In this document: piece after piece, positions 9,820 through 60,700 of the stretch
How positions within the stretch are numbered: position 1 is the stretch's first letter
Layout: each line of letters opens with the position of its first letter
Assembly: GCA_905178155.1 (NCBI GenBank)
Contig: CAJINV010000013.1
Coordinates: forward strand, 2,050,281-2,114,280
Length of the DNA stretch: 64,000 bases
Reading direction: 5' to 3'
DNA from: Amoebophrya sp. A120
Lineage: Eukaryota > Protista > Dinoflagellata
The notes under the pieces: generated by a model
What the model was told of the DNA's origin: nothing
Seen by the model: only the letters and a program-made list of their open reading frames with translations
Database searches by the model: none
Translations under genes and position numbers: made by a program

Positions 9820-12800
9820 TCACATCAGAAACATATCATCCCTTCCCGGTCCGACACCGACCCAGCTGACCGGTACCCCGCAGAGCTCCTCGATTTTCTT
9901 CAGATATTTCTGTGCGGCTTCGGGCAGCTCTGCGAACGTGCGCATTTTCATCCCACAGAAAAAAAATGCTAGCACATAACATTGGATTTGTTTTGTAGAT
10001 AAAAATGCAAAAAAAAATCTGTCATGGGCGAGCGCATCTTAGCATGCCGGTACATGTATGGCAGTGGCAGAATTTCTTTTGCATTAAAGTAATGTGATAT
10101 CCTAGCTGTTTTTTGCTGGATAGTTTTAGAGATGTCCTCAGTCCACCCCGGCATTACCTCGTAGACGACTTCCATATCGGCCAGGTCTAGTAGGTCGTCT
10201 ATCCTCTGTGAAACCGTCCCCATCCCAGAGTCATTTTCAAAATAGGAATTTTACAGAAGCAGAACACAAATCTAAATCAACAAGGCTTGGCTGTTGCGCA
10301 TGACAAGCTTGGGGTCGTAGAAGTGGGATCATAGATTGTGTTTTTTACTAGCTCGCGCAGCAGCGTCACAAATCTCGATCATCTCATCCTATTATTATTA
10401 TTTCTCAAGTATAACAAACTCCCATACAAAATTGAAAAACTCGCCATATATTGTATTAGGCGTGAAGATTTGCATGGCAAAGCTGGGGTGGGAACGTTCT
10501 TCCGCATGATACGGTCTGGGAAGGACCCCTCCGGCATGGTGGTGCTCGTTTTCTTGTTTTTGTACTGGACCTGCAAATATTGGTATCCTGAGAAAAAAGT
10601 GTTACAGTTACACGTTGTGTTGCAGGCCAAGCAAGACAGACAAGCTCTGTCATGCCGGATATGCATAGGAGCCTCCTTTCATAGGTGTTTTCCCGTTGGA
10701 TTTCTGCATTGCAGGTTTTCTCTCTCATGCAGAGAAATTTGTGTTGCTGAATTGACAACAAATGTGTAACTGTAACACTTTTTTCGTGCGATAATTGGTC
10801 GATAGTGATTCTTTGTGTATTATAGTAGTACTGAGTGTAATTTTGATACTAGTACTTGAAGATTTTGATTTTTCCCTGGTGCCGGAGCCGGCACATTCAT
10901 CATCATTACAATAGTTTGTCAAAAATAAACCACGAAGTAGAGCGAAAGTTTTCAGTACTCCTATCCGTAATTCCGGCAGTCCTGTCAGCACGTCGCTTTA
11001 TAGTGGTGAAAAAGGATTACTTACACAAGAAGTACCCGCCGCTGACTCTTATAGACCTACTGCCTGAGTCAACATGGCTGTCACGACGATCATATCTCTC
11101 TACTTCCAAGTCAGTCTATTGTTGAGTACAGCACCGCAACAACGACGTGTAATTCTTGGTCTCCTCCTTTTTCATACTAATTTCGTGATGTTTATCGACG
11201 TAAAGCCGATGATATGCCGTCAAAAGAAATCATCATGGCCACCTTTTCTGTTCCCTGCGCTTTCGCGGTGTGACCATGCTGAGTCGTGTTGACAAAGATC
11301 AGTATAATTGGCCTTACGACTGATTTTTCTGCTGAAACTGGATAGCACGAGGACGCGGCACACACAGCACCCAAAATGTATTATGCGGCAATGATGATTT
11401 CCAAATCGGATACTTCACACAGTTGCTGTATCTGACGAGGGGAATGTCAAGCCACCCGCATCTCCTTGGTTTGGTATAGGATTGCGCAGCCCCCCTACCC
11501 CTCATTTGTTTGAAGCACATGGCTGCAACGAGGACAACGACAGACAAAGATGAGATGTCCCTGCCGCATGGCACATTCGGGCGCGGACCATAGAAGTGCA
11601 AGTCAGGGCTGATCTTGTGGTCTCAGCTTTTCCCGCAACCTCAAGCGATCTTCCTCGTGGTTCATCTACAAGGCATAGGATATCAGGAGGAGGATGAAGG
11701 GGGCCTTGTGCACTCTCATATCTGCCCGTTGTTGTTCCAAACTCATGGCCAACCTGGGAAGAAGTAAGAAAGAAAGCATCCTATTAATTTTGCGGCACAA
11801 GAAGAACGCAGCAGAGGCACGCCAAAGACACACAGATGTTGAATCTCTCACAAATGAGACGTCTTGGCAGCGAACAAAGCATTTGCACTTCTCTTTTCCC
11901 TAATTTATTGGGGTCCTCCTGAAAGCGGATTTATCTAATTCATTAATTTTGTATATCATTGATTTTGAGATACCTTCGCTAAATGCTCTCCATTGGTGTC
12001 GTACAACTCTGTTGGGAAAGGTCCCTCGCCTACCCGTGTCGTGTACGCCTTGACCACGCCGATGGTGTTCTTTATTCTTTGCGGTGGCACGCCGAGCCCT
12101 GTCAAAGCGCCGCCAATGGTCGTGTTCGAAGAGGTGACATAGGGGTAGGTCCCAAAGTCGATGTCCAGCATGGCCGCATTAGCACCCTCCGCGAGGATGA
12201 ATTTCTTCTCATATCCTGACCAAAAACGTCCCCACCCCGGGGGATGGGCGAGGAAGTACTTTCGGCGACCTCCGCATCATCATCATCATCATCATCATCA
12301 TCATCATGTAGTGGAGATCCGCATATTAAGAAACATTTTGAGCATGCAGATTTGCATGACAAGTATGGCGTGGGGATGTTTTTACATAGGATATCTCATC
12401 AATGTGGTTTTTCATCATCGCCACGGAATCGACGATCTGCGGTGCCAACAAGACGCTGTACTCCTTATACCTGCAATCAAAATTGTAGTAAGTTCTTGGG
12501 ATCATGCTGTCGTGCACCGTGCTGAATAAGACCGCGGCTGCGGCCTCGTTGCTCTGACACGACCGTGGCGTAGGTAAGTACCCGCACGATTAAGGACTAT
12601 ATTATACACGGCGATCCGGAACGTGGTTTTGCAACAAATACCTAGCCAATTCCGCATCATAGTCCGCTTTTACTCCGTAGTGCGCGGAACAGAAGTCGAG
12701 CAGCTCCTTCAGCTTGGGGGCGAACGACGTTTCAAAGTGCACCAAGTCCCCTATTCTCAGCCCGTTGCGCAAGATCTTGGTGGAGTAACACGGCCCGATT

Positions 12801-57700: not shown

Positions 57701-60700
57701 CCAGATGATGACGTGCTGCCGTACTTGTACTCATCGTGCTGTTGCCCCCCCTGCCCACGGCCCTGTCCGGCGTAGCTCCCGTCGTGGTCGTACCAAGAGC
57801 TGCTGCCAGAGTTGTCGTCGTTGTCTCCAGCAGACGACGACGCACCATTTGATGCGTCTTTGTTGTTATTTCGGTTGTAGTAGTTGTTATTATCATTTCC
57901 TTGTTGGCTATAATAACCTCCACTAGAATAATTACGGTCGTTCTCGCCATAATTGTCATTGTTGTAGTTGCTCGACGAGGCAGACGTCCACGTTTTAGTA
58001 TTCACGTTGCTACTTCCCCCGTAGCTGTTGTCTGCCGCCCCCGACGACGATGCACCGCTGCCCTTGTAATTGTTCTGCTTCTGCGTGTAGTCGATCCTGT
58101 TGTTCTGCGTGTAGTCAATCTTGTCTCCCCGGTTGCTGAAATTATTGTTGCTGTTCGCGTTTATATTGTTGTGGTAGTTTTTGTCATCAGGAGTCGGGGT
58201 CGAGCTGTTGTAATTACTAAAATTATTGCCGTCAGGAGCATAATTCATCCCCGACACGCTACCGGTACCACCACCCGTCCGGGCGTTTGGATGCACGTAC
58301 CTGTTTTCGCCTCCGCTGGGCAGCTTCTTGTCGAGGTAGCCGCGGCCCGACTGCTGCTTTTCTGCGCTCGCACGCCAGTCGTCGCTGCTCAAAACGCGTG
58401 CAGTGCGGGAGCTGCTCGCCGTCGGCAGAGGACCGCGGCTTTTTGATGTTGTATTGGTCCCCGATGAACTGTGAGCAGTGGTCGAAAAAGTTGTAGTGGT
58501 ACCGCTACCATATCAAAATGAAAAATCCCCCCTCCCCATATTGAAACGTAAATTTCTGCTGCTGGATTTGTGTACACAAATCAGCCCTGTCTTGCAACGA
58601 GGCACTGCAGGCAAAGCCTCAGTCTGCGTAGGGCTGTTTCTGTGTAGGTGCTTAGCATAGCAGAGACATTCGATGTAGGCATAACAGGATTACAAATCGC
58701 CGGCATAAAGCGGCGGACTCTTTGCATTTGCCCCCTTGCAAGAGCGATTTGTGGTCACAAATCAGCATCACAAATTTTTAGCAGCATGCCTTTTCAGTAT
58801 GGGGTGGAGGGGGGATTTTTCCCTACGATATACCACTACTAATCCCAATCCCGTACACCGCCGCCACCGCCACAAATTCCTTCTTCGAGTCGTTGCCCCG
58901 GGATTTCGGATTGCGCGCCAGCTCGAACTCCCAGCACTGGCCCTTTGCGAACCTTTTCGCATGGTTGTCGCCCCAGAAGTGGACCCGGTGGTCCACATCC
59001 GCGAGTAAAATCCCGTGGTCGCAAAGCAGGTTCTTCGACCGCAGTAGTGCGACTTTTCCGTACTTTATATGGTAAGGAAAAATGAATCCCCCCTCTCCAC
59101 ATCGACAAGGCATGATCCTTCTGAAAATTTGCAGAGCTGATTTGTGGCCGCAGAAGATCATGGCGGCTGTCTTGCAAGTAGAAGGCAAATCTAGAATGTC
59201 CGCCGCATTATGGTAAGTACGCAGGCAGATTGTGACTCTGCTAGACCCACAGGGCGGCAGACGTCTGGCATGCAGCTAAGTGGCGACCGCAGAACATTTT
59301 CCCTGCCCAGGCTTTGTATCTACTTCCTGCATTCCGCCACTGAAAGACAAAGCTGCATTTTGATATGGGGAGGAGGGATTTTTCCGCACAATACTTTCCC
59401 TCCCGGATTTCCCCATGGTGCCAGTACATTGCCTCCACCACTTCGCCACGGAGCCGCTCCCGAATGCGGAAAGCTTCCTCGAGCGGCAGCGCCGCCTCTT
59501 CCTTGGGCGGAATTAGCCCGCTGACGTCTTTCTGCTGCTGGCGCAACGTGGCCAGAGCCAGCATCTCCAACGGGCTCGTCCCTTGCTGAAACTCCGCACT
59601 TACCGCCTTGAAGTAGAGAATCTTCGTAGTTGTTGTTTGTAGTTCCTGCTGTTCACCAAAAATACCAGTCGTCGGAGTAGAAAAAGAAAAATCCGCACTG
59701 GCACTACTACTCTGCAGTTGTACGATCTCCACCTCTGCCTCGGCTAATTTGAAGCTAAACTTCTGCCCCATTTGGAACTTATCAATGCCGCTCCGCCGCA
59801 TCACGTCCGACCAGTGCAACAGCACGCTGCCAAGAAAGTCCTTCGGCGCAATCAGCACCGCGTACTCCGTGGAACCAGACGACTCATTTTTCCCCCCGTG
59901 CACCGACTCCACGACCCCCTCGAGCCGTTCCTGCAGCGCGCACAGCTCCGCCTTTGTCCGGGTTCCGGGAAACAGATCCGCTGCAGCCGCTGCTGGAGTC
60001 GTGGTTGTACTTTTACTGTTGCAGTTATTTGTACTTCCTGGCGCCGTTTTCATTGAAGTCGCGCACTTATCGGCGGGCGAACCGTCCTGCTCGATGTCTC
60101 CTTTAGCGGAAGCAGCGACATCAGCCACAGCGTTTTTATTGCTGTCAGGAAGACAATCATCTAGTAACGAAGCACCGGACGAAACACCAGAGTCGTTGAT
60201 CGCCAACATGTTCATAATATCCGCACCAGTGGAAGTGCCACAACCTCCTGAGCATCCTGATTCATCCTGCGTTGCCAGAATCTTCTTGTTCCCGATTGTA
60301 GAAGAAGTAGAAGTGACCACAAGCTTCTCCGACGACGTAGCCGCATCTTTATCTTTTTCTAAAGATAAAGAATTGTTCATCGCGGACGAGGAGCTACTAA
60401 ACACTTTCGGCTCCTGTGGCATGCGCTTCACCACCTGCTGCACGGTGGTGCTGATGGGTTCGTGCGGGGTCTTGCCACCGCCGCCCCCCGGGCTGCTGTG
60501 CAAACTGTTACAACTGTCGGCTTCATCTTGGTTGGGTGACACGAACTGCTCCAGCGAATCGTGCTGAGAACAATGAGAGGACCCAGCAGAATCGAACTCA
60601 TCCTTGTTTCCACGAAGTACAGAACCCATCGTGGTGGTCCCCCTCTGGTCAGGGGACGCGCAGGACCGCTCTTCCACGGCTTCCACCAATTTCTGTTCTT

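Follow-up and report, generated by a model that had tools for sequence, protein, structure and literature searches.

A repeated, end-phased motif shared by introner families of Amoebophrya sp. A120 and its putative role as a protein-binding site

Introduction

A 64,000-nucleotide (nt) stretch of contig CAJINV010000013.1 of the dinoflagellate Amoebophrya sp. A120 (forward-strand positions 2,050,281 to 2,114,280; hereafter the window) is packed with 110-400-nt intron elements bounded by 5-bp duplications and by inverted repeats that read TAT, about seven variable bases and AAA. Inside these elements, and across families with unlike ends, recurs the motif GCAT(G/C)ACAA, which is 8-13 bases long, repeated and often paired. 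We describe it as a conserved repeat that is phased to the element ends and is probably, though by no means certainly, the DNA-binding site of a trans-acting protein (a transposase or its partner) that copies the elements. Introners and subterminal binding repeats have both been published before; the shared, phased motif appears to be the new addition. It opens both the putative mobilising protein and the rule of splicing to direct tests: the motif array can serve as pull-down bait and as a signature for finding the autonomous element, and its separation from the splice signal leaves a cut register that can be tested in one of the most non-canonical intron systems of eukaryotes.

The motif is concentrated in the window elements

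We catalogued 44 window elements by their terminal inverted repeats (TIRs), target-site duplications (TSDs) and RNA junctions, without using the motif. The TIR start, TAT plus 7 nt plus AAA, is seen both in an end matrix of 66 window ends and in the family ends. The original prediction had placed the motif at about 20 positions; all 20 are present, one of them a single nucleotide away (23573 rather than 23574), and nine further copies bring the window total to 29 exact matches. Of these, 27 lie in the 11.8 kb of intron elements (18% of the window) and two in the remaining 24.5 kb of other DNA, with none in the 4.9 kb of tandem arrays, none in the GT-AG introns (a weak control, with only 0.96 kb of sequence) and none in the exons (21.8 kb), in agreement with the claimed rarity of the motif in long exons (Fisher p, elements against exons, 5e-13; against other plus canonical DNA, 6e-12). 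The intergenic stretches of the window, scanned for clusters of motif sites, contain none. Motif discovery in elements versus exons and canonical introns, the check proposed with the prediction, yields an enrichment that survives composition-preserving shuffles: the element interiors hold 26 copies against 0.45 in dinucleotide and 0.64 in trinucleotide shuffles (maximum 3 in 100). Counted by the number of families in which they occur among the window elements, GCATGACAA is the first-ranked 9-mer and GCATGACA the joint first 8-mer. The refined consensus is wGCATSACArAttt, and its matrix finds 129 sites in the window elements without strand bias (62 vs 67).

The motif recurs in held-out elements

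For replication we used metagenome contigs of another assembly that were scanned with the family-A repeat, giving 149 loci (L001-L149) and 628 kb of merged sequence; this set is biased to A-type families and to intact copies. Among the longest matches between these loci and the window there was no long orthologous match. TIR plus TSD called 442 held-out elements, with a median length of 260 nt and families of up to 57 members, and removal of one element containing another left 441. The matrix trained on the window finds a site in 437 of the 441 elements and in 52 of 56 families, and the exact 9-mer has a density of 6.5/kb in elements, 0.12/kb in long open reading frames (ORFs) and 0.82/kb elsewhere. 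Of 84 pairs called solely by their TIRs, 73 are bordered by exact 5-bp duplications, 856 of 884 element ends read TAT (detection being limited to four triplets), and the insertion sites show no target sequence preference. The same TIR pattern, sought in viral contigs, gave 0 matches.

Three side observations concern this set. The observed/expected ratio of CpG is 0.61 in the held-out elements versus 1.0 across the whole of the fetched sequence, and TG and CA are more frequent in them; locus L015 codes for a C5 DNA methylase domain; and a 972-nt element with identical TIRs and no long ORF lies in the RPB1 gene of locus L066 (10792-11763).

Sites are paired at 31-33 bp and phased to the element ends

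In the window, same-orientation site pairs 31-33 nt apart number 20, in seven families, against a null mean of 3.65 (maximum 12 in 3000). When one copy per family is drawn from the held-out set, 31-33-bp pairs are present in 23.5 of 56 families (200 draws, minimum 20) versus 4.8 under the null (maximum 11); closer pairs, of 29 bp or less, are scarcer than expected (11 vs 28). Of 17 family consensuses, 16 contain a 31-33-bp pair, as do six of seven TIR classes, and 9 of 29 pairs enclose an inverted third site (null 0.3). The sites are also placed with respect to the ends. In the outer quarters of the window elements, outward-pointing sites prevail by 21:4 and 19:4, and the first outward sites of held-out elements cluster 31-34, 40-44 and 52-56 nt from the element end, with a Rayleigh R of 0.48-0.50 at periods of 10.5-11.

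The spacing differs from the one first proposed, which was drawn from CATG sites 13 or 26 nt apart in the element at 37083 and from a 13-nt length difference in the copy at 7138. The underlying observations are sound: CATG stands at 37211, 37224, 37250 and 37276 (gaps of 13, 26 and 26 nt), and the 7138 copy measures 249 nt vs 262 nt, the 13-nt deletion taking out one motif site. As a general spacing, 13 nt recurs: it is the first bin, seen in 13 of the 56 families of the held-out set, and is consistent with two sites arranged tail to tail at a distance of 15 nt. We reject a 26-nt periodicity, which appears in only 4 of the 56 families. Neither is the main spacing, since the dominant same-orientation distance is 31-33 bp. 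We do not claim that the TIR head is itself a degenerate motif copy, since good scores are confined to 3 of 34 family ends.

Motif columns are constrained within families

Families were defined by community detection, which replaced a single-linkage clustering that chained families together. In the ten largest families the motif columns diverge by 0.089 versus 0.208 between sites. Mapped by parsimony, change on internal branches is 0.0084 in the motif versus 0.035 in the spacers, a fourfold difference, and on terminal branches 0.041 versus 0.083. The residual motif mismatch of 3.2% is near that of the TSDs, in which 56 of 1450 positions (3.9%) mismatch. A cis code common to the families, as the original prediction proposed, is hence borne out by the site in 52 of 56 held-out families, by the pair in six of seven TIR classes and by the constrained motif columns.

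Splice junctions fit a fixed offset from the element ends

The elements are skipped in contigs from runs X3 and X4, which belong to a single sample taken, as a guess, to be RNA; the joints used are 15 of 36, together with those from contig pieces. DNA run X1 is unbroken across 34035-37106. The raw-read runs X9 and X10 gave only 14 and 9 matching reads, on repeats, and no evidence was drawn from them. Of 24 junctions examined, 19 have non-GT-AG ends, and 19 of 19 simple non-canonical junctions are compatible with a cut 1 nt ahead of the 5' TAT and another 4 nt past the element's 3' end. This 1/4 register is fixed uniquely by the junctions 10196-10512 and 11209-11413 only; the others permit two to seven placements. 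In the RNA sense, the intron so defined is made up of the element and a single copy of the TSD, and it may begin with any base. A preference for GT/AG proto-splice sites is rejected, with the donor N being G in 67 cases, A in 61, C in 50 and T in 45, and an AG acceptor occurring in 25 of 223 elements. A-N acceptors are listed often in rows of a 2025 dataset (PMC12130899) and may reflect annotation within the TSD.

To relate the motif to splicing and intron age we scored 18 RNA-supported non-canonical introns, excluding 13304-13820 and 13914-14541 for nested elements; in these two composite introns young elements (13312-13466 and 13926-14232) sit in the terminal repeats of older ones, and both are still skipped in the contigs. 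Five of the 18 introns have no site, their best scores (1.7-6.1) being at exon background (median 3.5), yet they are spliced; hence, the motif is not required for splicing. All five carry TAT or TAC at +2 and four have a predicted end-closing stem, and this terminal TAT...ATA stem is the feature that old introns retain. Site number correlates with the TSD match (Spearman 0.65, p=0.003, n=18), falling as the TSD decays, and held-out copies with a 4/5 TSD match have 1.80 sites per 100 nt vs 1.98 in those with 5/5 (p 0.035). Because sites are lost with age, the motif does not flag old introns as former elements, as had been supposed. Nor is it a necessary mark for the removal machinery, given these five introns and the occurrence of asymmetric families in both orientations relative to transcription. 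Of the claim that the motif lies in several families and in degenerate introns, the first part stands, and the second fails for the five most decayed RNA-supported introns.

A putative binding site and its alternatives

That nearly all families carry a conserved, phased site speaks for a single mobilising factor common to them. Since 31-33 bp corresponds to three turns of B-DNA and the end distances lie one turn apart, subunits bound to the array would lie on one face of the helix, where they could help to build a paired-end complex. Copies with an intact array would then multiply, and the array would decay after insertion. Splicing would rely on the RNA stem formed by the TAT...ATA ends, cutting 1 nt ahead of it and 4 nt past it, and removal of the element with one TSD copy would restore the exon. 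Judging by the TA..TA termini of the elements, the mobilising enzyme is likely an integrase-like DDE protein. Between the two functions originally suggested, that of transposase binding sites fits best, the transposase itself being putative. A broader and distinctly more tentative proposal is that a single integrase-like machine recognises a 32-bp array in helical phase and moves nearly all A120-type families, with splicing reading a separate TAT...ATA code of 1 and 4 nt and not GT/AG. If so, the codes for mobility and splicing would be separable modules, and any exonic insertion could be removed without trace.

Several results weigh against a mobilising protein that binds the array. No transposase or autonomous element was found by Pfam among the 100 longest of 264 locus ORFs, which cover a small part of the genome, nor among the 14 window ORFs; furthermore, in passages of Farhat 2021 (PMC7789003) no transposase is reported in A120 and general mobilisation by a transposase is argued against. 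In the RNA sense, an excess of UGUCAUGC over GCAUGACA is more frequent than the reverse (115 vs 76 of 224 strand-agreed elements, p=0.006; 159 vs 121 under looser strand calls), and pure DNA binding does not predict this orientation bias of about 60:40, which possibly stems from a minor effect at the RNA level or from an insertion bias. The families are not independent, since their motif-masked consensuses make only seven groups and spacer identity between TIR classes is 33% vs 26% after shuffling. The reduced motif change on terminal branches, half that of the spacers, could come from host selection or from under-sampling. As for the phasing, the best-window-corrected family count in the window alone is attained in 19 of 1000 null sets, periods from 9 to 12 all score in what is a broad fit, element middles are also filled with sites, some families have inward-pointing end sites, and spacer length within families is conserved no better than in control windows.

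Some of these points would suit a motif that aids splicing at the RNA level, as an enhancer, a branch-point-like signal or extra stem pairing that is helpful and not required. Such an aid would account for the orientation bias (which reaches 0:5 in family 10 and 23:9 in family 1) and for the constraint on terminal branches; being complementary, the outward sites of the two ends could lengthen the hairpin, and U1 snRNA is given as not detected in A25 or A120 in passages of PMC7789003. We nonetheless judge it unlikely, considering that five introns at exon background are spliced, that the 7138 copy is spliced despite its lost site, that both orientations are common, that the window sites lack strand bias and that site number drops with age. 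In families 2 and 12 neither end has an outward site nearby, and for lack of a suitably placed site in these families a branch-point role as a general rule is rejected.

About as improbable, in our estimation, is an array that binds a DNA-binding or chromatin protein of the host, which the elements would exploit for mobilisation or tolerance. This predicts the same DNA-level pattern and agrees with the lack of a transposase in the ORFs scanned, and the motif core GCATG/TGCA is, we presume, reminiscent of apicomplexan AP2 sites. Against it stand the scarcity of the motif outside the elements, as counted above, and the phasing to the element ends, which suits an end-processing complex.

Least probable, and already disfavoured, is a functionless motif inherited from one ancestor made of ~32-bp repeats with exchange of segments, to which the TAT-N7-AAA head common to all families, the joining of 425 of 485 interiors by single linkage, the slight spacer similarity across TIR classes and the 48 interior nt that 12212 and 28567 have in common under different TIRs would be congenial, but which is at odds with motif columns that diverge 2.3-fold less, and on internal branches change fourfold less, than the spacers beside them, and with sites that persist at their distance while spacers approach saturation (33%). 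The joined interiors, the seven groups and the spacer identity do mark the families as related and mosaic; therefore, common ancestry of all families is likely. It does not by itself account for the pattern, because the motif columns are constrained within families, so that an origin of the enrichment in one ancestral family, the objection raised with the original prediction, is likely as ancestry and fails as a full explanation.

The elements 12212-12393 and 28567-28793 have unlike TIRs, and their shared segment is 90% identical, which suggests module exchange.

Relation to known systems

The window elements fit Amoebophrya A120-type introners, an assignment made by features and not by identity. 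As described in parts of PMC7789003 and PMC12130899, A120 introners are likewise non-GT-AG introns with TAT + 7 nt + AAA inverted repeats, short direct repeats and co-oriented genes; the 3-5-nt direct repeats at their borders appear here as the 5-bp duplications, and the long exons examined in the window read on the minus strand. Our family lengths of 109, 149, 211, 235, 253, 262, 280, 307 and 322 resemble lengths in the 2025 dataset (PMC12130899; 57 of its 58 A120 rows were covered), where most A120 families are labelled 'TIR DNA, Unknown' and fam38 is labelled 'Ginger; 5-bp TSD, TA/TA Termini'. Unlike our description, the portions of text and tables consulted in PMC7789003 and PMC12130899 give no shared internal motif, no 31-33-bp spacing and no fixed cut register; the legend of Farhat's Fig. 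3 (PMC7789003) calls the border position unknown, and 'CATG' is absent from the main text of that paper. Titles and abstract openings of the literature searched contain no description of the motif or its spacing, with figures, consensus files and subscription papers outside the scope of the search, and the available parts of PMC12005148 and PMC11453091 add nothing on internal introner motifs.

The elements are short, non-coding, TIR-bounded and multi-copy with a fixed TSD, as are miniature inverted-repeat transposable elements (MITEs); only 3 of the 442 held-out elements exceed 600 nt, and the longest has no long ORF. Subterminal repeats that bind the transposase are a feature of hAT and CACTA transposons. 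In the MITE Emigrant, Lemi1 proteins bind subterminal repeats (PMC1636448, in part), and such repeats resemble the present motif in being short, inside both ends, mostly inverted and conserved in propagating lineages. The motif described here differs in that it is common to many TIR classes, extends throughout the interior, is tightly spaced at 31-33 bp and lies in spliced introns. With IS3EU/GingerRoot, as far as the excerpts of PMC10045372, PMC6839031 and PMC12730594 go, the elements share TA..TA termini and the lack of a target sequence preference; their TIRs are of ~30 bp versus 100-150 bp in GingerRoot, and we do not file them there because those elements usually have a 6-bp TSD, versus 5 bp here (6 bp in 0 of 84 TIR-only pairs).

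A parallel in splicing may be drawn with the nonconventional introns of Euglena, which, in the sections seen of PMC12501133, are also cut at a fixed offset from a terminal paired motif and have a proposed MITE-like origin. The signals differ, being N3CDG...CH'GN5-6 in Euglena and 1 nt, TAT...ATA and 4 nt here; the lineages are unrelated, and an internal array such as ours is not described in those sections.

Elements and other features of the window

The coordinates of the elements and of the host gene are collected in Table 1. Two window exons match adenylosuccinate synthetase (purA).

Table 1. Elements, old introns and host gene, with window positions counted from its first letter; sites are motif sites
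Feature	Position	Remarks
Family A1 element	7138..7386	intron 7134-7387 of minus-strand gene; exact site 7337; 5 matrix sites
Family C element	7685..8020	RNA-supported intron; 4 matrix sites
Old non-canonical intron	8314..8654	TSD 3/5; site-less; spliced
Host gene adenylosuccinate synthetase (purA)	9600..15508 (approximate limits)	minus strand; joined exons give a 436-aa open frame
purA intron element	9949..10122	1 site
purA intron element, B3	10200..10511	exact site 10298; junction 10196-10512 sets 1/4 register uniquely
Family D element	10584..10793	intact, inside canonical GT-AG intron 10571-10958; 7 matrix sites incl. 32-nt pair
Old purA intron	10999..11176	TSD 2/5; site-less; spliced
Old purA intron	11213..11412	TSD 2/5; site-less; spliced; junction 11209-11413 sets 1/4 register uniquely
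purA intron element, E	11475..11720	1 site
purA intron element, B3	12212..12393	exact site 12354, 31 nt from right end
Short A-type element	12847..12967	purA intron; at most 1 site
Old purA intron	13031..13281	site-less; spliced
Family F element	13312..13466	within TIR of older element 13310-13821; exact site 13360
A-type element	13926..14232	within TIR of older element 13914-14541; exact site 14036
Old purA intron	14846..15119	site-less; spliced
Family A1 element	15170..15450	purA intron; exact site 15403
Family B1 element	15513..15916	8 sites; three 32-33-nt pairs; exact site 15650
Element G	17326..17620	5 sites
Family A1 element	23532..23799	exact site 23573
Element with F-type TIR	28567..28793	interior segment common to 12212; exact site 28702
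Family A1 element	29747..30008	exact sites 29788, 29961; 32- and 31-nt pairs mirrored at both ends
Element H	30052..30188	1 site, 32 nt from left end
Family B2 element	30245..32060	contains 129-bp tandem array; exact site 32010
Family D element	32120..32331	exact site 32183
Family B1 element	32916..33274	intron; exact site 33092; two 32-nt pairs
A1-related element	33320..33647	intron; 4-5 sites
Family C element	33810..34116	intron; exact site 33899; two 32-nt pairs
Family E element	34203..34472	exact site 34381; one 32-nt pair
Family B2 element	34969..35290	intron; exact site 35070
A-type element	35385..35675	2 sites
E-type element	35738..36015	exact site 35788
Family A1 element	37083..37344	intron; exact site 37122; multi-copy family (depth of DNA run X1 very high)
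B1 element	39936..41876	split by ~1.6-kb GC-rich insert; 2 sites
Family F element	43099..43256	1 site
B-type element	43745..44105	exact site 43939
E-type element	44332..44581	0 matrix sites
Family A2 element	45126..45377	exact sites 45158, 45206, 45245, 45329; 33- and 31-nt pairs
B3-type element, weakly supported (TSD 1/5)	46452..46796	1 site
A2-type element	54158..54401	exact sites 54193, 54342
D-type element	54455..54616	1 site
Family B1 element	58511..58830	exact site 58765; 33-nt pair
B1 element	59068..59393	2 sites

A 39-nt exon at 33275-33313 was deduced from record coordinates. In purA, a probable 8-nt microexon (14543-14550) lies between the GT-AG intron 14551-14730 and a non-canonical intron; at this joint the RNA contigs have four additional letters, and the reading frame remains open. 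A Rfam scan of the window at gathering thresholds gave 0 matches. The insert in element 39936-41876 (~39990-41600) is a different element type; it has palindromes in its interior, a 109-bp tandem array and a short inverted end of the GGTAACC type, and a search of its boundaries (~39985-41600) found no long ungapped TIR. The tandem arrays at 30474-31945, 18400-19800 and 16340-16760 are related, with units of 110-250 bp. Finally, 3520-3715 is probably an old E-type element with an exact site at 3671, and RNA contigs start at 3708.

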